Below are positions 20,591-31,118 of a stretch of DNA of 64,000 nt, one piece after another. Numbering within the stretch: the stretch's first letter is position 1; each line of letters starts with the position of its first letter. The notes under the pieces are model-generated. The model had not been told where the DNA came from. It saw nothing but the letters and a program-made list of their open reading frames with translations, and ran no database searches. The translations under genes and the position numbers were made by a program. Origin of the DNA: a virus; the IMG/VR virus record IMGVR_UViG_3300020576_007358; one strand, given 5' to 3'.

Positions 20591-21815
20591 ACCTGCTAAG
20601 GTTGTTGCGGGTGAAGAACCTGCAAAGAAGAAAGCTGCAAACAGTGACGTTGACGATCTTACGACTGAGATCATCAAGTCCATCAACAAAGAATTCGGTC
20701 AACGAGTAGCGTACAACCTGTCAGTAGACGAAGCGCCTACTAACGTGAAGCGCTGGTTGGACACTGGCTCTATTCAACTGAACTATGCTATCAGAAATGC
20801 TGCTGGAGGTGGTTATCCTGAAGGTCGAGTCATCGAGATTTCTGGACCGCCATCGATAGGAAAATCACACCTAGCGTACCACGCTGCTGCTATCGTCCAG
20901 GGAATGGGTGGACTAGTAGTTTACATCGATACTGAGAATGCAACGCCAGTTGAGAAGCTTAAGAACGTTGGCATCAACGTTGCAAAGAGGTTCGTGTACT
21001 GCGATGCACATTGCACTGAAGAAGTATTTTCGATCATCGAATCAACTATCTTGAAGGCAAAGCAAGTCATGGACAAGAATGTTCCAATTCTTGTCATATG
21101 GGACTCAGTAGCGGCTACGTCACCAAAGGCCGAGCTAGATGGTGATTACGATCAGAACACTGTTGGTTTGCAAGCCAGGGTCATCAGCAAAGGCATGAGA
21201 AAGATCACTGGTGTGATCGGTCAGAATAACGTGACCCTGCTGTGCCTCAACCAACTTCGAACTGCTATCGGCGTGACGCATGGAGATCCAGACATCACTC
21301 CGGGCGGAAAATCGATTCCTTACCATGCAACGCTCAGAATCAGGCTTTCTTCCGGAACGCAAGTTAAGGATAACAGCGGCAATGTCATAGGCATCCATGT
21401 TATCATGACAACAAAGAAGAACAAAGTCGCACCTCCTTTCAGGAAGTACGAATTTGATGTCATCTTTGGCAGAGGAATTTCTGAGCACACTTACATCTTT
21501 GACGAACTTCGATCACACTGTGAAAAGAACGCCGTGACGATCGATCACAAGGACAGCAAAGGAAACGTTGAAAAGCTTCAGATCTCAATTGAAGGCGTCT
21601 CCGCCTGGAGAACGTTGAAGGTTTTCAGCACCGTGACTGGAGAAGTTCTCATCGAGAAGAAGTTCCAAAAGAACAATTTTGATGAGATAATGGCAGATCC
21701 AGTGTATAAGCCATTCATTGACAAAGCTATAGAAGACGCGTACATCATCCATGGTGGTGATCCAGATTCGTCTGGTGAATCACCTTCGGAAGAAGAGGTC
21801 CTCGATGAAAGTTGA
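20583..21815 (+). CDS. UvsX/RecA-family recombinase.
   Basis: Walker A GPPSIGKSHLAYH and RecA-like core. Confidence 0.65.
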   Translation: MAKPAKVVAGEEPAKKKAANSDVDDLTTEIIKSINKEFGQRVAYNLSVDEAPTNVKRWLDTGSIQLNYAIRNAAGGGYPEGRVIEISGPPSIGKSHLAYHAAAIVQGMGGLVVYIDTENATPVEKLKNVGINVAKRFVYCDAHCTEEVFSIIESTILKAKQVMDKNVPILVIWDSVAATSPKAELDGDYDQNTVGLQARVISKGMRKITGVIGQNNVTLLCLNQLRTAIGVTHGDPDITPGGKSIPYHATLRIRLSSGTQVKDNSGNVIGIHVIMTTKKNKVAPPFRKYEFDVIFGRGISEHTYIFDELRSHCEKNAVTIDHKDSKGNVEKLQISIEGVSAWRTLKVFSTVTGEVLIEKKFQKNNFDEIMADPVYKPFIDKAIEDAYIIHGGDPDSSGESPSEEEVLDES

Positions 21816-22326
21816 AGTTCTCTACGATGGCCCAGCCGCCCCAGAGTACAAGACGCTCGGAGCGGCTGGGTGTGATCTGTACGCTGACGAACACCAGATC
21901 GTCCTCGCTGGAAAGACGACGATCATCTCTACGGGACTTCGGCTAGCGATCCCAGAAGGATACGAAGGTCAAGTCAGGTCAAGATCAGGTCTTGCAACGA
22001 AAGGCGTGTTCGTTCTGAACTCTCCTGGTTGCATTGATTGTTTTTCGGGTGATTCGAAGATTAGTACTCTTAATGGAAAAATGAGCATACATGATCTTCG
22101 AATCAATGATCATATTCATTCATTCAATGAATCAACGCATGAAATAGAAAGTGATATTGTCACTGCCATTGTTGATGTGGGCGTAAGAGATGTTATCATT
22201 TTTCGCCTAGATGATAATACTACAATGTCTTTGACACCTGGAACGCTTGTATATACTAGCGCCGGCTTGAAGAGAGCTGATCAATTGACGTCATCTGATG
22301 AAATACTGGTTGACCATGATAGTTAG
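21805..22326 (+). CDS. dut: dUTPase N-terminal piece (motifs 1-3, ...VLNSPGCID) fused to an intein N-half (starts CFSGDSKIS at 22039) and ending in a stop.
   Basis: dUTPase motifs AGCDLY, RSG and NSPG.ID. Intein block A at C+1. ATG 21805 overlaps the RecA stop. Confidence 0.6.
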   Translation: MKVEVLYDGPAAPEYKTLGAAGCDLYADEHQIVLAGKTTIISTGLRLAIPEGYEGQVRSRSGLATKGVFVLNSPGCIDCFSGDSKISTLNGKMSIHDLRINDHIHSFNESTHEIESDIVTAIVDVGVRDVIIFRLDDNTTMSLTPGTLVYTSAGLKRADQLTSSDEILVDHDS

Positions 22327-22331
22327 TTATC

Positions 22332-23267
22332 ATGGTCAAATGTTTGATATGCAACGTTGAAAAACCCTATTCTATCGTTGAACATCTACGTTGTAAGCAC
22401 AAATTGTCAGTTGAAGCTTATCGTAAACAATTTGCCAACGCAGAAGTGAAATCTGCGTTGGCAATTGAAGCCATTTCTAAGCAACATAAGCTTGTTTGGC
22501 AAGATGAATCATACAAGCAAAAGATGCGTGCGTCTCGACAACGCACGCATCGTACAGATGAATTTCGTAAAAAACAATCTGATATCATTAAAAGTACATA
22601 CGCCCATGGGCATAGAACTTGGAATGATGGTCTGACAAAAGATTCGGATGAAAGACTGTCTTTGATTGGAAAAAAGAATTCAGAACATTTGACAGGCAGA
22701 ACAAAAGATACACATGATTATCTTAAAGGAAAAAGTGTTTTCATGAAGAAATTTCATGAGGATAATCCCGGTGTCTTTGTTCATAATAGAATTAATTGGT
22801 CAGAAGAACGAATAAAAGAATGGAAGGAAAAAATAAGTTCATCAGTTTGTGAAGCTTACCATGATGGCAGATGTGGCAGTTCATATCGATATATCAAAGG
22901 TTGGTTCGAAACGAAAGATTCTAAAAGAGAACATTATGATTCATCATGGGAACTTTCTTTGATGGAATTCTTGGAATCATTGAATGTTACGTGGACAAAA
23001 GCACATCGAATTACGATTGATTATCAATTTAATGGTAATAGAAGATACATTCCTGATTTTTTGATATCTTGGCGTGGTAAAAATTTGCTGCTTGAATTGA
23101 AGGGTTATGTTTCATCACAGATTGAACTTGATGAAAAAACTCAAGCAGCTAAAATTTGGTCAGAGAAACAAAACATGTGTTTTTCACTGTGTCATAGCGT
23201 AAACGAAGCAAAAGATGTCATTTGTAAATTTATGACGGAGGCAAATGAAACTAGCAAAAATTGTTAA
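22332..23267 (+). CDS. Free-standing homing endonuclease (zinc finger, [10 protein letters not shown] repeats, Vsr-like core) lying between the two dUTPase/intein pieces.
   Basis: ORF track. Same family as the other Vsr-like HEs. Confidence 0.55.
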
Positions 23268-23700
23268 TATTGAGCGTTCTACTGATCGTTGTTATGATTT
23301 GACCGTTGAAAACAATCATAATTTTTTCTGTAATGATGTTCTGATTCATAACTGTGATTACAGAGGCGTTGTGAAAGTCATATTGCACAACGTAGGGTCA
23401 TCGACATTTACTGTCAACAAAGGAGATAGGATAGCCCAGCTTGTAATTACGCCGATTATTCGAGCGTCATTCTCGCACTCTCGTGAGCTGCCAGAAACCG
23501 CTCGTGGAGCCGGTGGGTTTGGTTCAACTGGTACGTTAACTGATCTGTACTTGGGTCTTTGCGTTGATTACAGTTCAACATCTCTACATAAGGTGTTAAA
23601 TGGACGAAAAATCAACGCAAAGACCCATTTTGATTGTGGATTCTCTCAATCTCTTCGTGCGTTCATACGTTGCGTTTCCTGCAATGAACGTCAATGGTGA
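23245..23700 (+). CDS. dut: Intein C-half (36 aa, ...[13 protein letters not shown]) fused to the dUTPase C-terminal piece (CDYRGVV...[10 protein letters not shown]).
   Basis: Intein blocks F/G end in HN followed by Cys+1. dUTPase motifs 3 (tail), 4 and 5 follow. Start overlaps the HE stop. Confidence 0.6.
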
Positions 23701-24583
23701 AGCCACTGGAGGGTGCGTTGGATTCTTGAAAACGCTTCGCAAGCTTGTCAATGAGTATTCACCATCAGCTGTATACCTTGCATGGGAAGGTGGTGGATCG
23801 CAGAGAAGAAGAGCTCTGTTCTCAGAATACAAGATGAATCGACGACCAGAGAAGTTGAATCGATTCTATGAAGATGATTTGCCTGACTCTGAAGAGAATC
23901 GCCAACACCAGTTGATAGTGCTGCTGGGTTTGATGAAGTTCATCCCAGCGTGTCAACTTTACGTCTCTGATTGTGAAGGCGATGATCTTGTAGCTTACCT
24001 TGCGCGGCAAAAGTTTAAGAACGTTGACAAGATCATCGCTTCATCTGACAAAGATATGTACCAGCTCCTTGATGAGCGGACGAAGATTTACAGTTTTCAC
24101 AAGAAGATCATAATCACTGGTGATGACATCTTGAATGAGTACAAGATCAAGCCGGGAAACTTTGGTCTAGCGAAAGCGCTGTGCGGTGATCCGTCTGACA
24201 ACATCCCTGGATTGAAGGGATTTGGGTTCAAGACAGCATCTCGCGTTCTTCCATTCTTGCAGCTTCAAGATGACATTCTTGTCAGCGATGTGATCGACTA
24301 CTGCAATTCACACTATGACGAGTCAAAGTTGTACCAACGTGTTGTCGAGAATCAGGATCTTTTGAAGAGAAATTGGCGCCTTGTTCATCTAGATGGCAGC
24401 ATGCTGTCCGCTGCTCAGGCTTCCAAAGTAGATCAATTGATCAGTACATACGTCCCACGTAGTGATAGGATCAGCTTTACTCGAGGGCTTATGAAGGAAG
24501 GCATCAATGATTTTGATGTTGCTGATTTCTTCATGACCTTCAACTGCATCGAGAACGTGGAAAATAGGACTAAAGAAAAATGA
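23600..24583 (+). CDS. RNase H / 5'-3' exonuclease (FEN family).
   Basis: [17 protein letters not shown]-terminus and acidic clusters typical of T4 RNase H and Pol I 5'-nuclease. Confidence 0.6.
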
Positions 24584-25368
24584 ACGATGACATCAAGCCG
24601 ACAACGCAAGCTTCATTCGCACAGTATGGAAAGTCCTTCCAAGAAAAGCTGTGCCAAGCGCTGCTCGTTGACAAGCAGTTTGCTGAGCAGATGCTGGAGG
24701 TCTTTAACGTAACGTACCTAGAGCCAAAATACTTGGTGTTTCTTGCTGAACGTTATTTTTCGTACGCTCAGAAGTACAAGGTGTTTCCAACGATGCAGTT
24801 GCTCATCACGATCATCAGAGACGAGCTAAAGATTGGAACTGACGTTGTCATCAGAGATCAGATAGTAGATTACTTGCAACGCATGCGCTCTAATCCTGAC
24901 GTTGGAGATCTTCAGTACGTCAAGGAAAAGGCGCTAGATTTCTGCAGGAAGCAAGCGTTGCGCAGCGCTCTTGAAGAAGCGGTTGATCAGATACAGGCAG
25001 AGAAGTATGAATCGATCGTTGAAGGCATCAAGAAAGCAGTGATGGTCGGAACTGCTCCGCAGTTGGGTCATGACTTCTTTGCCGATTACGAGAGTCGCTT
25101 CACCAAGCTGTCGAGGAATGCAATTGCTACAGGTCTTCCAGAGCTAGATAAGAAAGACATCTTGAACGGTGGGTTGGGATCAGGTGAGCTAGGTTGCGTT
25201 GTTGGTGCGACTGGAACAGGAAAGTGTGTACATCGTGATACTTACATTCAGGTAAAATATACTGGAGTGAGAATTGATGGAAAACTATACAAGCCTTGGG
25301 ATCGAATTGCAACAAGGCGTGGAATCATCTTTGCTAGAGACGTCGTCGAATCAGATGAACTTGAGTGA
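24580..25368 (+). CDS. DnaB/gp41-like replicative helicase N-terminal piece, ending in P-loop GATGTGK, followed by an intein N-half (CVHRDTYIQ..., 47 aa) and a stop.
   Basis: Walker A is interrupted exactly at the GK|S position by Cys+1, the classic DnaB P-loop intein site. Confidence 0.6.
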   Translation: MNDDIKPTTQASFAQYGKSFQEKLCQALLVDKQFAEQMLEVFNVTYLEPKYLVFLAERYFSYAQKYKVFPTMQLLITIIRDELKIGTDVVIRDQIVDYLQRMRSNPDVGDLQYVKEKALDFCRKQALRSALEEAVDQIQAEKYESIVEGIKKAVMVGTAPQLGHDFFADYESRFTKLSRNAIATGLPELDKKDILNGGLGSGELGCVVGATGTGKCVHRDTYIQVKYTGVRIDGKLYKPWDRIATRRGIIFARDVVESDELE

Positions 25369-26458
25369 TAAATTCAAGTGTCAATATTGTTGTCAGCAAT
25401 ACAACAATCAATCTGGGTTGATCACGCATATTCGACGCAAGCATTCAACAACATTCACAGATTACAAGTTGAAATTTTCTCATCTTTACAAAGTTGAAAA
25501 AAGAGAAAAAAAACTTAGTCTAAATGAACTAGCTAGACGTAAACGTGATGAAAAAGCTATTGATGATGGACTTCAAGTTTTGAAGTGTGAAATTTGCAAT
25601 TATGAATCTTACTACAGTTTGATATCGCACATCGTAAGAAAACACGGTGTGGCTATGAATGAATATCGATCAAATTTCCCTTCAGCAGTTGTACAGCAAG
25701 TTACATCAGATGTCAGAGAAAAAAATAGAAAGAATGCAACGTTGCATCTTTCAGATCCTATCAAGAAAGCGAATTTTCTAAAACGAAGATCTTTTCCTTC
25801 TGAGATGAAACACTGGATCAATAAGGGATTTTCATCAGACGAAGCAAAGAAAAAAGTTGCTGAATTTCAACAAGCGATTGCGCTTAAAGGTAATAATGAA
25901 AAAACGAAGGCAAAACAGTCAATTAGAAATTCTGGTCAAAATAACCCAATGTCATTGACATCAATTTCGAAACGTCTTAACGTTTCGAAGGATGACGCAA
26001 GCAAATTGACACCGTGTTATGGAAGATCAGGCATCAAACATCCGATGTTTGGTAAAAAACACAGTATTGAAGCTTTGAACAAAATTGGTCAACACATTAA
26101 TCACACCGGACGTTCGAAAATCGAACACGAAATGTCTGATCTGATCATTTCATTGTATGGTGGTCTAAAGAACGTAGGAGTAAATGGTTGGTGCTGTGAT
26201 TACGTTAATCACGATCGTCAGATTATAGTTGAATTTTTTGGTGATTATTGGCATCACAATCCGGAAAAATATGATAGAAATTTTGTCAACAACTTTACTA
26301 AACGTTCATCTGAAGAAGTTTGGTTGCGTGATGCACGCAAATTGAATGAACTTAGAGAGAGCGGCTTTAACGTTGTTGTGATATGGGAATCTGATTGGCG
26401 AAACAAAAAAGAAGACAGTTTGAACAGGATAAAAGATGCTTTCAATAGAACATTGTGA
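25355..26458 (+). CDS. Free-standing homing endonuclease (C2H2 zinc fingers, Vsr-like core EFFGDYWH...VVIWESDW) between the helicase pieces.
   Basis: ORF 25274..26458. ATG 25355 (MNLSDKFKCQYC) overlaps the intein-N stop. Confidence 0.55.
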   Translation: MNLSDKFKCQYCCQQYNNQSGLITHIRRKHSTTFTDYKLKFSHLYKVEKREKKLSLNELARRKRDEKAIDDGLQVLKCEICNYESYYSLISHIVRKHGVAMNEYRSNFPSAVVQQVTSDVREKNRKNATLHLSDPIKKANFLKRRSFPSEMKHWINKGFSSDEAKKKVAEFQQAIALKGNNEKTKAKQSIRNSGQNNPMSLTSISKRLNVSKDDASKLTPCYGRSGIKHPMFGKKHSIEALNKIGQHINHTGRSKIEHEMSDLIISLYGGLKNVGVNGWCCDYVNHDRQIIVEFFGDYWHHNPEKYDRNFVNNFTKRSSEEVWLRDARKLNELRESGFNVVVIWESDWRNKKEDSLNRIKDAFNRTL

Positions 26459-27677
26459 AGTTGTTGAAGTTGTTAAAGTTGGTGATCTGTTTGCTAGCAT
26501 TGGATTTAATGATGATTCAGTTGCTGATGATTCTGGTGATTCATTTATTCCGAATGAATGGTCAATAGAAGTCAGATCACTTGACACTTTCTATCCTGTA
26601 GATGGTTTTCGTTGGACAAAACCAGAGCAGCAGGTGAAATTGACATATGGCAAAGAATCTTCTTTGCAGTGTTCACCAGAACACATTGTTTTGAAGTATT
26701 CTTCTACAGAAACTCAATGGACAAAAGTTAGTGATCTATCGCCTGGTGATGACATTGTCACTGTTAATGGCATATGCATGATTGATTCGATTGATAATCT
26801 AGAGGAACTTGATCGTCTTTGCGACCTTCAAGTATCAATTGCACATTCTTACTATGCTGACGGTGTGTTGTCACATAATTCTCACTTTCTTACGTTCTTG
26901 GGTGCAATGGCGCTGAGGAACAACGTTGATGTTCTTCACTACACGTTTGAGCTATCAGAGACTCAAGTTGGTATCAGGTATGATTCTAACTTGTGTGACA
27001 TTGATTCGAATGCTGTCATTGACAGCAAGGATCGTATTCTTACTAAGTACGCAGAGCAAAAGCTGGGACGCTTGATCATCAAGTACTTTCCGACGAACAC
27101 AGCTAGCATCTACACGCTTCGAAGTCACATCGAGCGCCTCGGAACGAAGGGTTTCAGGCCAGGATTGATTATCATCGACTATGCTGACATCATGAGATCA
27201 ACTCGTCAGTTCGATTCTTTGAGACACGAGCTTAAGCTCGTTTACGAAGAACTAAGAGGAATGGCTGGTGAGCTAGGAATCCCAGTGTGGACAGCGAGCC
27301 AGAGCAACAAAGAGGGAGCGACAAGCGAGATCATCGACATGGGAAACATGTCTGAAGCTTACGGCAAAGCGATGATCGCTGACGTGATCGTCAGCATCTC
27401 TAGGCGTGCTCACGAGAAGTCAACGGGTCAAGGTCGATTGTACGTTGCAAAGAATCGCGCCGGGCGCGATGGTCTTGTTTATCCGTTGCACATTGACACC
27501 TCAAAGAGCAACTTTGAGATCTTGGGTGGACCGGGTTCTTTGGACGTCGCCATGAAGGAGAACGAATCTGACATCAAGAAAGTTCTTCGTTCAAAGTGGA
27601 ACGAGATGAGAAATGATCCAATCATCGGCGAAAATCTAAAAAGAGGAAGCGATTCTAGCGATGACACGGGTTCTTGA
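26436..27677 (+). CDS. Intein C-part (about 148 aa with blocks B, F, G; ...VLSHN) fused to the helicase C-terminal piece (SHFLTFLGAMAL...).
   Basis: HN|S junction at 26880. Helicase motifs follow downstream (IIDYADIM, SQSNKEG, RAGRDG). Confidence 0.6.
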   Translation: MLSIEHCEVVEVVKVGDLFASIGFNDDSVADDSGDSFIPNEWSIEVRSLDTFYPVDGFRWTKPEQQVKLTYGKESSLQCSPEHIVLKYSSTETQWTKVSDLSPGDDIVTVNGICMIDSIDNLEELDRLCDLQVSIAHSYYADGVLSHNSHFLTFLGAMALRNNVDVLHYTFELSETQVGIRYDSNLCDIDSNAVIDSKDRILTKYAEQKLGRLIIKYFPTNTASIYTLRSHIERLGTKGFRPGLIIIDYADIMRSTRQFDSLRHELKLVYEELRGMAGELGIPVWTASQSNKEGATSEIIDMGNMSEAYGKAMIADVIVSISRRAHEKSTGQGRLYVAKNRAGRDGLVYPLHIDTSKSNFEILGGPGSLDVAMKENESDIKKVLRSKWNEMRNDPIIGENLKRGSDSSDDTGS

Positions 27678-27737: not shown

Positions 27738-30700
27738 ATGAAGACATTTACGTACCAAGAAGCTCGTGATGCATCGGTTGACTATTTTTCTGGTGACACT
27801 CTAGCTGCTGATGTTTTTGTGTCCAAATATGCGTTGCGTGATTCAAATGATCAAGTTCTAGAGAGCACACCAGAAGCCATGCATCGTCGCTTGGCGAAGG
27901 AGTTCGCTAGGATAGAGTTGAACTACAAAAACTCTATTTCGTTCGAAGAGATCATGGAGTATTTCAGCTCTTGGAAGATCGTGCCTCAAGGATCGCCGAT
28001 GTCTGCGATTGGAAACACGAAGCAGATCCAGTCTCTGTCAAATTGCTTTGTCATTGAATCGCCGTACGATTCTTACGGCGGAATCATGAAGACCGACCAA
28101 GAGCAAGCTCAGATCATGAAGCGCCGCGGCGGTGTTGGATTCGACATCTCGTCAATCAGACCAAAGGGATTGGTCACAACTAACGCTGCTCGTACGACCG
28201 ATGGCATCGGTGTTTTCATGGAGCGCTTCAGCAACACTTGCAGGGAAGTTGCGCAAGGCGGTCGCCGTGGTGCTTTGATGATGACAATCTCTGTTCATCA
28301 CCCAGAGATTCGCACGTTCATCAACATCAAGAAGAACGTTGAAAAAGTTACAGGCGCAAACATCTCGATCAGGTTGACTGATGAGTTCATGCGAGCAGTG
28401 AAGGCTGGCGAGAAGTTCCAGCTAAGGTTCCCAGTTGAAGCAAATGCACAGCATACGATCAAAGAAGATGTCGACGCTGGTGAACTGTGGAGTGAGATCA
28501 TTGAGGCTGCTCATGCGTCAGCTGAACCCGGCTTGCTATTTTGGGACAACGTTGTTAATAATGGTCCAGCAGATGCATATCCCGGCTTCAAGTCTATCTC
28601 TACGAATCCCTGCTCTGAGATCGCTCTTTGCGCTTACGATTCGTGCAGATTGCTGCTTCTCAACGTTTCAAAGTTCGTAGAGAATCCTTTCACTGACAGA
28701 GCAAATTTCAACATCAAAGAGTTCAAGAGAGCTGCGTACGTTGCTCAACGCTTGATGGACGACTTGGTTGATCTTGAGCTCGAAGCCGTCGATAGGATCA
28801 TCGACAAGATCAACTCAGATCCAGAACCAGACGACGTAAAGAAGAACGAGCTAGATCTTTGGTTGAAGATCAGGGAAAAAGGTGCCTCGGGCCGTCGCAC
28901 TGGTTTGGGAATCACTGGTCTTGGTGATGCCATTGCGTACGTTGGGTTGAAGTACGGATCAAGGGAATCTATCGATTTTACGGAAGATCTGTATAGAATG
29001 TTGGCTCTTTCTGCGTACCGTTCGTCAGTTGACATGGCGGCAGAACGTGGAGCATTTCCTGCGTTTTCTCACAACGTTGAAGCTGGTCATCCGTTCATTG
29101 AAAAGATCTTGGCACATGATGATGAGCTCAAGGCTGCATACAAGGTTCACGGTCGTCGTAACATTGCCTTGACAACAACTGCGCCCGCTGGATCAGTTTC
29201 AATCCTGACTCAAACAACGTCTGGTTGCGAACCTGTTTTTGCAGTTAGCTACAAGCGCAAGAAGAAGATCAATTCGAACGACGTCACGACCACTGCCAAC
29301 TTTGTTGATGATCTTGGAGATCGTTGGCAAGAGTATACTGTCTACCATCATGGATTGAAGATGTGGATGGATGTGACTGGAAAGACAGAGGCTGATATTG
29401 ATGAATCGCCTTACAAGGGTTCTTCTAGCTCTGAGATCGATTGGCATGCTCGTGTTGACCTTCAAGCCGCAGCCCAAAGATGGATCTGCCATGCAATTTC
29501 CAGCACTGTCAACTTGCCATCAGATACGTCAGTTGAGACAGTTAAAAACATCTACATGCGAGGTTGGGAATCTGGGTGCAAGGGAATCACAGTGTATCGT
29601 GATGGTTGCAGAGCAGGCGTTCTATCGACAGAAGAGAAAAAGCCAAGTATTCAAGGAGCGTCGACCGATGGCTTGAAAGCCCTTCTTGACATTGTAACTA
29701 AGAACGCTGGTAGCATTCCATCAGCTGATTTGTACAAAAAATTGATTGAAGAAGAGCTCACGAGGAGAGAGCCGACTCAACCAGAAAAGGTCGTCGAAGT
29801 TCATGCACCAAAGCGTCCAAAGGAGCTAGAGTGTGATATCCATCGAGTCAACATCAAAGGTGAACAGTATCTTGTCTTCGTCGGATTGCTGAACGGTGTT
29901 CCATACGAAGTCTTTGCTGGTCTGTCAGAACACGTTGAAGTGCCAAAGAAGGTTAAGAAGGGAATCTTGATCAAGAATGGCAAGAAAGACGGTGTTGCAA
30001 CGTACAACCTGAAGATTCCTGTAGGAGATGATGATTTTGTGACGTTCAAAGACGTTGTTAACTTGTTTGACAACCCAACTTACGGTTCGTTCACCAGAAC
30101 GTTGTCTCTAACGTTGAGGCATGGCATCCCGCTTCAGTACATCGTAGAGCAGCTTCGCAAAGACAAGCACAGCGACATGATGTCATTTTCAACTGTCATT
30201 GCTAGGGTCTTGAGCAAGGGTTACATCGTCGATGGAACGAAAGCAACTCAAGAAAAGCAGTGCTCAAGTTGCGGTTCTGATCAGCTAGCGTACATGGAAG
30301 GTTGCCAGACGTGCATGAACTGTGGAAGTAGCAAGTGTTCCTTATACTTAACTCCAAGACGAAAGGTTGATGACGTGAAAATCAAGATCACACCGCAGAT
30401 GCTGAGGCAGCTTGTTAACGAAGAAGTTCTGAACGTGAAGCGCAAGGGAACTTTGAAGGAAGCCTTTGGACCATATGATGCCACTGGCGAGTATGATGAT
30501 AAGGAATACGGCATGCAACCGTGGAACTTTGAAGAGTCACACAGGGAACTGTTTGCTCAGGCGCTTGAACCAGTCATCAATGAGTTCATGGAGTCTTTGG
30601 CCGAGATCGTTGAAAGAGCTTCGCCACCAGATGCTAACATGTCTGCGCAAGATATTGGTAGCGATGAATACAACAGCTTCGGTGAAGACCTCAAAGAAGA

Positions 30701-31118
30701 TCTTTTGAAGGTCATTGCTCAACACATGAAGAATGCGTCTGAAAATTTTGGTCTTTTAGAGGTTAACGTCATGAAGATAAAGCTAAGTGATCTGCGAAAG
30801 ATCATCAGAGAAGTTGCAGTTTCACCTGCTGTCTTCAAGAGCAGCCAACCTGCAAAAGATCCGATGGAGAAGAAGAACATTGTCAAAGCGGTCTCTGATT
30901 TGAAGACAGCGTTCGAATCAGCGCTTCTAAGCAACCTTGTTCTTGCGAACCCAGAGAAGTACGATGAATCCTCGAGAGAATTTGATGATCAGATGTACGA
31001 ATCTCTTAAGACAACAGCGGCCTCAGCATCTGAACAAGTAGCATCAAAGATCAATGATGCAGTTCAGACTGCATGGGTTGCTGCACACAAAAACTCTAAG
31101 GTAAATCACTTAAAGTGA
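27738..31118 (+). CDS. Ribonucleotide reductase, probably class II monomeric NrdJ-like, with a C-terminal zinc ribbon and an additional C-terminal extension of about 250 aa.
   Basis: NPCSEIAL active-site motif. Zinc ribbon CSSCGSDQ...CQTCMNCG. The extension carries two copies of the MKIKLSDLRKII-like peptide. Confidence 0.65.
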   Translation: MKTFTYQEARDASVDYFSGDTLAADVFVSKYALRDSNDQVLESTPEAMHRRLAKEFARIELNYKNSISFEEIMEYFSSWKIVPQGSPMSAIGNTKQIQSLSNCFVIESPYDSYGGIMKTDQEQAQIMKRRGGVGFDISSIRPKGLVTTNAARTTDGIGVFMERFSNTCREVAQGGRRGALMMTISVHHPEIRTFINIKKNVEKVTGANISIRLTDEFMRAVKAGEKFQLRFPVEANAQHTIKEDVDAGELWSEIIEAAHASAEPGLLFWDNVVNNGPADAYPGFKSISTNPCSEIALCAYDSCRLLLLNVSKFVENPFTDRANFNIKEFKRAAYVAQRLMDDLVDLELEAVDRIIDKINSDPEPDDVKKNELDLWLKIREKGASGRRTGLGITGLGDAIAYVGLKYGSRESIDFTEDLYRMLALSAYRSSVDMAAERGAFPAFSHNVEAGHPFIEKILAHDDELKAAYKVHGRRNIALTTTAPAGSVSILTQTTSGCEPVFAVSYKRKKKINSNDVTTTANFVDDLGDRWQEYTVYHHGLKMWMDVTGKTEADIDESPYKGSSSSEIDWHARVDLQAAAQRWICHAISSTVNLPSDTSVETVKNIYMRGWESGCKGITVYRDGCRAGVLSTEEKKPSIQGASTDGLKALLDIVTKNAGSIPSADLYKKLIEEELTRREPTQPEKVVEVHAPKRPKELECDIHRVNIKGEQYLVFVGLLNGVPYEVFAGLSEHVEVPKKVKKGILIKNGKKDGVATYNLKIPVGDDDFVTFKDVVNLFDNPTYGSFTRTLSLTLRHGIPLQYIVEQLRKDKHSDMMSFSTVIARVLSKGYIVDGTKATQEKQCSSCGSDQLAYMEGCQTCMNCGSSKCSLYLTPRRKVDDVKIKITPQMLRQLVNEEVLNVKRKGTLKEAFGPYDATGEYDDKEYGMQPWNFEESHRELFAQALEPVINEFMESLAEIVERASPPDANMSAQDIGSDEYNSFGEDLKEDLLKVIAQHMKNASENFGLLEVNVMKIKLSDLRKIIREVAVSPAVFKSSQPAKDPMEKKNIVKAVSDLKTAFESALLSNLVLANPEKYDESSREFDDQMYESLKTTAASASEQVASKINDAVQTAWVAAHKNSKVNHLK

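Follow-up and report, generated by a model that had tools for sequence, protein, structure and literature searches.

How a phage can maintain a replicative helicase gene whose ATP-binding loop is broken by a second gene is the question raised by the viral record IMGVR_UViG_3300020576_007358, a stretch of 64,000 nucleotides (nt) hereafter referred to as the window. At positions 24580..27677 of the + strand, a DnaB-like helicase and an intein are encoded by three open reading frames (ORFs), which lie in three frames and overlap by 14 and 23 nt. The first ORF (N-piece, 24580..25368) encodes 262 amino acids (aa), i.e., 215 extein and 47 intein residues followed by a stop. It reads ...LGCVVGATGTGK and then CVHRDTYIQVKYTGVRIDGKLYKPWDRIATRRGIIFARDVVESDELE, the extein ending in GATGTGK and the intein tail running from CVHRD to SDELE. 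The last ORF (C-piece, 26436..27677, + strand; 413 aa) starts with 148 intein residues, MLSIEHCEVVEVVKVGDLF...YYADGVLSHN, and continues with 265 helicase residues, SHFLTFLGAMAL... The two pieces flank a free-standing, predicted homing-endonuclease gene (25355..26458, + strand; 367 aa). The ATG of this gene (25355) is located 14 nt before the N-piece stop (25366-25368), and its own stop occupies 26456-26458. The ATG of the C-piece lies 23 nt before the endonuclease stop and is preceded, 6 nt upstream, by AGGA. Inspection of the ORFs and sequences confirmed all the coordinates and residue counts given in an initial sequence-only reading of this DNA. The locus is, with high probability, a functional fractured helicase gene carried on a homing cassette, whose products are predicted to be joined by trans-splicing.

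The helicase can be assigned at the family level only, as the match to TIGR00665 (E = 6e-12) falls under the equivalog cut-offs. Of the PHROG DnaB-helicase profile phrog_19, the N-piece covers positions 159-366 and the C-piece covers positions 371-579 (E = 1.6e-41 for the latter), leaving a gap of four positions, and Pfam DnaB_C (PF03796) matches the C-piece (E = 4.5e-14). Joining the N-extein (24580..25224, + strand), which comprises helicase residues 1-215 with the Walker A sequence GATGTGK at its end, to the C-extein (26880..27677, + strand), which comprises residues 216-480 and starts from the Walker A Ser at position +1 (SHFLTFLG...), reconstitutes a DnaB-type ATPase domain including Walker A. 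The joined exteins are 100% identical to the database protein P0012 (480 aa = 215 + 265), which reads ...GATGTGKSHFLTF... across the junction.

The four sister contigs that encode P0012 (L001-L004), ~95% identical in DNA to the window over 13 kb, hold an uninterrupted helicase (GATGTGK/SHFLTF, the slash marking the insertion point) that lacks exactly 25225..26879 of the window. Gene order is the same as in the window: PolA, HD, RecA/UvsX-like, dUTPase, 5'-3' exonuclease, helicase, class II-like ribonucleotide reductase (RNR) and ThyX. Relative to these contigs, the window carries two clean specific insertions, 22038..23355 in the dUTPase gene and 25225..26879 in the helicase gene. The latter falls in frame between the Walker A Lys and Ser (GK/S). 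The intein-free junction DNA in L001 is ...GGAACTGGCAAG/AGTCACTTTCTT..., and the intein-plus junction is ACA GGA AAG ... TCT. The P-loop is insertion point b of DnaB in the survey of Novikova et al. (PMC4760082), and the locus is thus interrupted at the canonical DnaB P-loop intein site, as the sequence-only reading had it. Megablast gave no match to the locus among 50,697 phage records, and the best relatives of the RNR of this uncultured phage are only ~44% identical.

The two inserted pieces together are predicted to make up a complete Hint fold with all the catalytic residues of a class-1 intein. Family alignments place block A (β1-β2) and, after it, a conserved ~31-35-aa insertion in the 47-residue intein part of the N-piece (Int-N; 25225..25368, + strand, including the TGA stop). 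Blocks B, F and G are placed in the 148-residue intein part of the C-piece (Int-C; 26436..26879, + strand, MLSIEH... to ...GVLSHN), so that the early proposal of a 47 + 148 split with block A alone upstream is upheld. In Int-C, β3/α1 (VVKVGDLFASI) comes before an acidic loop, which is followed in turn by blocks B (CSPEH), F (RLCDLQV.IAHSY) and G (LSHN). All 83 tails of 47 aa have Cys1, as do, without exception, the 21-29 fused or contiguous sequences compared. H83 (block B), D130 (block F), H147 and N148, then S149 at position +1, are invariant in 23 diverged Int-C sequences (39-63% identical). P28 and W29 of Int-N are also invariant.

NCBIfam intein_Cterm matches the C-piece with 17.0 bits (cut-off 15.6). 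The Pfam Intein_splicing match to the C-piece alone is sub-threshold (E = 2.5e-4; 21 bits versus a cut-off of 35.8), and a family profile and a structure model were therefore needed. The fused-family profile matches the solved inteins gp41-1 (6QAZ, E = 1e-8), VidaL (6VGV, 2.7e-8) and NrdJ-1 (8e-8), the matches spanning profile positions ~78-201 only; the match to CatC is weak (E = 0.11). For AlphaFold2, the Int-N of the window was joined to Int-C with four extein residues on each side, and a 129-row alignment of N-pieces, C-pieces and contiguous homologues was supplied. The fused intein was modelled with a mean predicted local distance difference test score (pLDDT) of 94.1 and a predicted template modelling score of 0.88. 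The pLDDT is 92-98 in Int-N up to the break, and the sole dip (77-89) spans model residues 41-60, around the natural break between residues 51 and 52. A Foldseek search against the PDB gave 58 matches at E <= 1e-3, the best 50 of which are inteins or other Hint domains. The matches include the TFIIB mini-intein, VidaL (template modelling (TM) score of 0.80 on the target), RadA, gp41-1 (0.79), PolB16 and Aes123 PolB1. Profile search and structure prediction both support an intein, and 26436..26879 is retained as part of a Hint domain.

The gene in the middle is a member of the Vsr-like family of homing endonucleases, whose first description came from fractured genes (PMC2677866; PMC3239194), and its product is predicted to have cleavage activity. 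It features two C2H2/Ros-like zinc fingers, a NUMOD3 motif and a C-terminal Vsr-like core. Pfam matches are to zf-C2H2_4, zf-BED, NUMOD3, MTES_1575 and DUF559. In the C-terminal region, the matches to Vsr, DUF559 and MTES_1575 are weak, and NCBIfam vsr (TIGR00632) matches the ORF at E = 4e-4. A profile was also built from 12 orthologues, each located between the two intein pieces of a related locus. In the PDB, it matches Vsr (1CW0, 1VSR; E = 1e-7), the Ros zinc finger (2jsp; 0.007) and I-Bth0305I (3R3P; 0.008), in agreement with the zinc-finger/Vsr-like endonuclease already read from the sequence.

The split state is conserved and, as judged from sequence comparisons, appears to be functional. 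About 95 of the 120 best clusters of C-piece homologues are 385-445 aa long and start with ML(T/S)IE...IGDLF. Int-N is exactly 47 aa long in 83 of the 93 N-piece clusters with a recognisable tail, and 48-57 aa long in the rest; its consensus is C....tyi.i.Y..ikInGk.ykPWdri.TkRG.ifArDi.e.Del. The same length is found in 22 of 23 loci from IMG/VR and metagenomes that show both pieces. The spacer between the pieces in these 23 loci measures ~1,100 nt (endonuclease of 350-440 aa), ~850, 504, 366, 268, 152, 69 or 63 nt. The full three-ORF layout is also present in L008, L009, L012, L017-L021, L024, L028, L029 and L031-L034, and split loci devoid of the endonuclease are L015, L016 and L030. The endonuclease gene decays and vanishes, and the two-ORF arrangement stays. 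Across the family, the mean charge is +5.4 in the first 40 residues of Int-N and -8.8 in the first 45 residues of Int-C; charge complementarity has been reported for other natural split inteins (PMC2677866). Strict purifying selection acts on the exteins: all 55 codon differences from the intact allele of L001 are synonymous, as are all 63 from the split allele of L036.

Production of a single chain by read-through or frameshift was rejected, as the ORFs occupy three frames. An assembly artefact was also rejected, as 11 independent contigs share the architecture. A promoter and terminator scan found no inter-ORF terminator or convincing promoter, site counts being near the shuffled expectation. 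A sigma-70-like match (TTGGCA-16-TATGAT, 10/12) occurs at 26248..26275, in the 3' end of the endonuclease gene and ~160 nt upstream of the C-piece start; given the site total, it may be due to chance.

Sequence comparisons indicate that the cassette has moved laterally. The helicase alleles of the window and of L036/L039 differ at 64/1,443 extein nt (4.4%) and at 0/1,655 cassette nt, a result with a chance of ~8e-33 at the extein rate. The identity runs into the exteins for ~39 nt upstream and ~32 nt downstream, and the laterally shared unit (25186..26911, + strand) is thus composed of the 1,655-nt cassette and two short tracts of co-converted extein. Neighbouring genes differ as well (exonuclease, 8.6%; RNR, 3.6%). 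The GC content is 36.3% in the cassette and 47.5% in the exteins. The Ser+1 codon is TCT in intein-plus and AGT in intein-free alleles, the preceding Thr and Gly codons differ at third positions, and codons 213-278 show a higher density of differences from the intein-free allele. The two cassettes of the window are found in different combinations: L036 has the helicase cassette and an intact dUTPase gene, the window has both cassettes and L001 has neither. This pattern is that expected of endonuclease-driven homing with short co-conversion tracts, and it lends indirect support to site-specific cleavage of the intein-free allele. In a further contig, L038 (SRR30451303), the endonuclease gene (corresponding to window 25355..26455) has 20 synonymous and 9 non-synonymous codon differences from that of the window, as against 3 codon differences in Int-N and an identical Int-C. 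This points either to intra-cassette recombination or to the endonuclease being less constrained.

Where the intein fold is broken was deduced from the model and from related sequences. In the natural atypical split inteins reported so far, Int-N is 15-37 aa long and the break lies at S1 (after β2) or at S2 (after α1) (PMC13014065). We infer that the break lies here in the β2-β3 turn, i.e., at S1, after the conserved family-specific insertion of ~31-35 aa; Int-N would be 47 aa long rather than 15-17 because this insertion precedes the break. In the model, a strand at 11-21 (YIQVKYTGVRI) precedes a stretch (24-43) with three short strands and a helix of one turn. The break falls in the loop at 44-54, beyond which come a strand at 55-65 (IEHCEVVEVVK) and a helix at 66-72 (VGDLFAS). 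A 14-residue acidic loop and the usual strands leading to block B come next, and the strand-helix-strand unit at 55-90 mirrors the C-lobe unit at 144-160. The Kuja TerL intein, which is contiguous and shows 35% identity over 106 residues, reads CVDHDTIIKIKD-KFGN-IADIKIGVFFHEIA, KFGN being a four-residue turn between β2 and β3/α1 (..IKD-KFGN-IADIKIGVFFHEI). The head of the VidaL-type Int-C of phage PA5oct, MEYIEKEVTVSELKSLY..., puts β3/α1 in the equivalent of the C-piece. The unit equivalent to VVKVGDLFASI sits downstream of the break or turn in both Kuja TerL and PA5oct UvsX. The same intein might instead be broken at S2, as in AceL and GOS TerL, in which case ARDVV would be α1 and the first ~40 residues of Int-C would be inserted sequence, comparable to the β4/β5 insert in the intein of Aes123 PolB1, all else being unchanged. 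S2 insertions are already known, 'GIIFARDVVESD' resembles the β3 + α1 + GD motif of many inteins and the intein's own C-lobe 'QWTKVSDLSPGD', and DSSP assigns a 3-residue helix at model positions 41-43. However, the proper α-helix of the model (66-72, VGDLFAS) comes after the 11-residue strand of Int-C, mirroring the strand-helix of the C-lobe, and 'IADIKIGVFFHEI' of Kuja TerL and 'EKEVTVSELKSLY' of PA5oct take the same place as 'VEVVKVGDLFASI'. A break at S2, which would require two separate insertions, is in our opinion unlikely.

The explanation that we favour is that a mobile cassette, consisting of a class-1 intein plus a Vsr-like endonuclease gene, invaded a DnaB/gp41-like helicase at the Walker A codons GK/S. 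As the endonuclease gene is located inside the intein coding sequence, the intein would be expressed as two polypeptides. The basic 47-residue Int-N (β1-β2 and a conserved small β module) would dock on the acidic head of the 148-residue Int-C, closing the Hint fold. Cys1 would then undergo an N-S acyl shift, attack by Ser+1 would give a branched intermediate and Asn148 would cyclise, releasing a 480-aa helicase with an intact P-loop, GATGTGKS. During co-infections, the endonuclease would use its zinc-finger and NUMOD3 modules to cut intein-free helicase alleles near the P-loop codons, and repair would copy the whole cassette along with ~35 nt of flanking extein per side. The Hint halves could conceivably act as dimerisation domains only, assembling the helicase without splicing. 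A precedent is the endonuclease-split NrdA of phage Aeh1, which is reported to reassemble without ligation through interaction domains (PMC3045599), and charge complementarity would equally serve simple docking. Yet the interruption lies within Walker A, and 195 extra residues would remain wedged in the ATP site. Moreover, Cys1, the block B His, the block F Asp, the terminal His-Asn and Ser+1 are invariant over lineages only 33-60% identical. Splicing residues are not needed for docking and the insert must leave the P-loop for ATP to bind, which makes mere non-covalent assembly very improbable. It could also be supposed that the helicase gene is a pseudogene decaying after endonuclease insertion, replication being served by another helicase. 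Sister genomes do have intein-free alleles, so that the split allele is not the sole form, and the endonuclease gene decays in some lineages. A pseudogene is nevertheless hardly credible in view of the strict purifying selection on the exteins (0 non-synonymous against 55-63 synonymous differences). The identical architecture in at least 90 diverged clusters, the conservation of both intein pieces at a fixed length and the occurrence of the split allele on 11 contigs from several samples also stand against decay.

Some observations speak against trans-splicing and homing as just described, or against the break at S1. Association and splicing of the pieces are deduced from sequence and modelling, and the activity and target site of the endonuclease are predictions from sequence. 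Block B reads C-S-P-E-H, the usual Thr position of TxxH being occupied by Ser/Ala. With 47 aa, Int-N falls outside the reported range of 15-37 aa (PMC13014065). The hhalign alignment is significant only from Int-C residue 35 onward, and the S1 assignment leans on the order of secondary structures and on short, statistically unsupported alignments of the head. Intein-free alleles persist in related populations, so that invasion is incomplete. Lastly, the fractured genes described by Dassa et al. in 2009 have a 27-51 nt spacer with a hairpin or a late promoter before the endonuclease gene, whereas the ORFs overlap here and no such spacer is present.

The same intein is found uninterrupted in four clusters (P0022, P0065, P0070 and P0071; 667-682 aa). 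Contiguous forms read ...ESDNF-VIEHC... across the break, without the terminal 'EL.' of Int-N and its stop and without the initial 'ML' of Int-C, and an endonuclease gene was not found with any of the four clusters. The Int-C of P0065 is 87% identical to those of the split P0045/P0047 and 44-68% identical to those of other contiguous forms. In a neighbour-joining tree of this short region, each contiguous form nests among split forms. Repeated invasion of the same codon by an endonuclease gene might explain this distribution; re-fusion after endonuclease loss, at least three times, would do so more parsimoniously. Split and contiguous states appear to interconvert repeatedly at one fixed codon-level position via endonuclease gain and loss. 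The conserved module at the end of Int-N (YKPWD...T.RG.IFARD...DEL) and the acidic head of Int-C may serve as a capture device. Taken jointly with interconversion and with the use of the pieces as an orthogonal pair, this proposal is tentative, and we would put it at somewhat below even chances.

Most features of the locus have counterparts among known systems. The fractured genes of Dassa et al. (gp41-1 to gp41-9, NrdJ-1, IMPDH-1 and the GOS terminase; PMC2677866) feature the same layout of three ORFs on one strand. As here, the hosts are phage DNA-metabolism genes, including gp41-type helicases, and the endonuclease is Vsr-like. Endonuclease loss is also observed in both sets (gp41-7 in theirs; L015, L016 and L030 in ours), and in their terminase locus the break falls 'at an unusual point', motif N1 alone being in the N-part (PMC2677866). 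In contrast, gp41-1 to gp41-7 are inserted at position 356 of P-SSM2 gp41, with canonical splits of 88-105 + 33-54 aa, whereas the present intein lies in the P-loop and is split 47 + 148. VidaL, which is inserted in UvsX, and PolB16 OarG (6VGV, 8CPO) share with it an Int-N containing block A alone and, on the reading favoured above, a break between β2 and β3 (S1). They also share Cys1 and a Ser/Cys at +1, i.e., class-1 chemistry, splicing being predicted in the present case. VidaL, like the helicase intein, resides in a phage P-loop ATPase and is among its best matches (E = 2.7e-8, TM 0.80). Nevertheless, Int-N is 15-16 aa long in VidaL and PolB16 (PolB16, 15 + 168) and 47 aa long here, the present Int-C has an extra acidic loop after α1, and the host proteins differ.

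The AceL-TerL (25 + 104), GOS-TerL (37 + 115) and Cat-TerL inteins are also naturally split near the N terminus, are found in phage P-loop proteins and come from metagenomes. Their Int-C regions, 104-115 aa long, carry blocks B, F and G, but the break follows helix α1 (S2) and Int-N is 25-37 aa long, as opposed to 47 aa. The present Int-C shares 35-37% identity with contiguous TerL inteins from Vibrio phages. Bacterial DnaB site-b inteins, such as M. smegmatis DnaBi1, occupy the same insertion point, but are contiguous, cis-splicing and cellular; a close sequence relationship of the present intein to them was not found. As for the endonuclease, its core aligns with Vsr-like enzymes of the EDxHD type (Vsr, E = 1e-7; I-Bth0305I weakly, 0.008), and both occur with self-splicing elements in genes of phage DNA metabolism. 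I-Bth0305I, however, is intron-encoded, whereas the N terminus of the present endonuclease consists of two Ros/C2H2-like zinc fingers and NUMOD3.

The sequence-only reading had stressed that the split is very N-terminal and unlike that of DnaE-type inteins. The contrast is correct, but the novelty that it implied is reduced, as natural inteins split close to the N terminus had been described before. Earlier publications cover fractured genes and Vsr-like endonucleases as well as atypical split inteins. What is new is the host and site (the P-loop of a DnaB-like helicase), the long Int-N with its conserved module, and the overlapping ORFs without a regulatory spacer. Evidence that split and contiguous forms have interconverted appears to be new as well. 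In the searchable literature, we did not find an atypically split intein in the P-loop of a DnaB/gp41-type helicase or a natural Int-N of 47 aa, although a prior description is possible.

Few natural N-proximally split inteins have been characterised (AceL, GOS TerL, VidaL, PolB16), and they are prized as protein-ligation tools. The present ones form a large family in DnaB-like helicases of phages, comprising at least 90 clusters at 90% identity, and we found no description of it in the searchable literature. The family has a fixed 47/148 break, pieces of strongly complementary charge and, at +1, a Ser that belongs natively to Walker A motifs. If the proposals made above are true, the locus may provide a new orthogonal Cys1/Ser+1 trans-splicing pair, and the capture module would be a third structural solution for natural N-proximal splitting, namely a break at S1 that lies within an insertion. 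The occurrence of intein-free, split and contiguous alleles, of a homing footprint (~35 nt tracts) and of endonuclease decay with persistence of the split bears on the origin, spread and possible re-fusion of split inteins. Interconversion, if real, would offer a natural system for studying how inteins split and re-fuse.

A second fractured gene, encoding the dUTPase, is located 900 nt upstream (window 21751..23700). Its N-piece (21751..22326) consists of an extein ending in ...SPGCID and a 95-aa Int-N. The endonuclease of this cassette (22332..23267) features a Ros-like zinc finger and a TnsA-like PD-(D/E)xK domain. The C-piece (23245..23700) starts with a 36-aa Int-C, ...VLIHN, followed by Cys+1. 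The dUTPase intein is canonically split, and its endonuclease belongs to a nuclease family different from that of the helicase cassette; the two endonucleases share the zinc-finger module only (36% over 44 aa). At the junction, the intact protein of L001 reads IDSDYRG, with Ser, and the predicted spliced product reads IDCDYRG, with Cys. The RNR gene of the window (27738..31118) is uninterrupted. The neighbouring RNR genes of L005 (7075..10616), where the helicase intein is contiguous, and of L008 (6251..9928), where it is split, are interrupted, either by fracture (510 + 267 + 387 aa, with Intein_splicing matches) or by an intein that contains an HNH domain. Traffic of inteins and endonucleases appears to be concentrated in the replication module of these phages.

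Related inteins are numerous. A profile search of 1.84 billion representatives detected 4,002 relatives at E <= 1e-3, of which 549 have E <= 1e-10. Among the best 147 representatives (50% identity; P0241-P0387), 97 start with an Int-C of 105-160 aa. Sequences from position +1 onward identify the hosts as terminase-like (TT..ILLHY..F), SbcC/Rad50-like (ST.LDAI.FALFG), UvsX-like (SGKS) and DnaB-like. Read from the Int-C starts, this suggests that atypically split P-loop inteins are abundant in phage P-loop ATPases, including hosts not yet reported. Two helicase proteins, P0039 and P0089 (571 and 581 aa), feature a second, contiguous intein in the C-extein, at ...PIWTA/C......KN/SQSNKEG, so that one trans-splicing and one cis-splicing event would be needed per helicase.

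Atypically split inteins in phage P-loop proteins are often annotated as 'hypothetical'. For instance, in the cultured jumbo phage PA5oct (NC_071039.1 134722..137728, L044), UvsX is encoded by a VidaL-type fractured gene that is unannotated in the record. The 'hypothetical' gp276 (81 aa) carries the N-extein, ...FAGESG, and the 17-aa Int-N CLPETAKVKIRLSKKQS, which ends at the stop. Another 'hypothetical' protein, gp275 (477 aa), is encoded between the pieces and is without a Pfam match. The 'UvsX-like recombinase' gp274 starts with MEYIEKEVTVSELKSLYSSNEYEIELD..., and its Int-C of ~128 aa ends in ...FSSHN/SGKSY.

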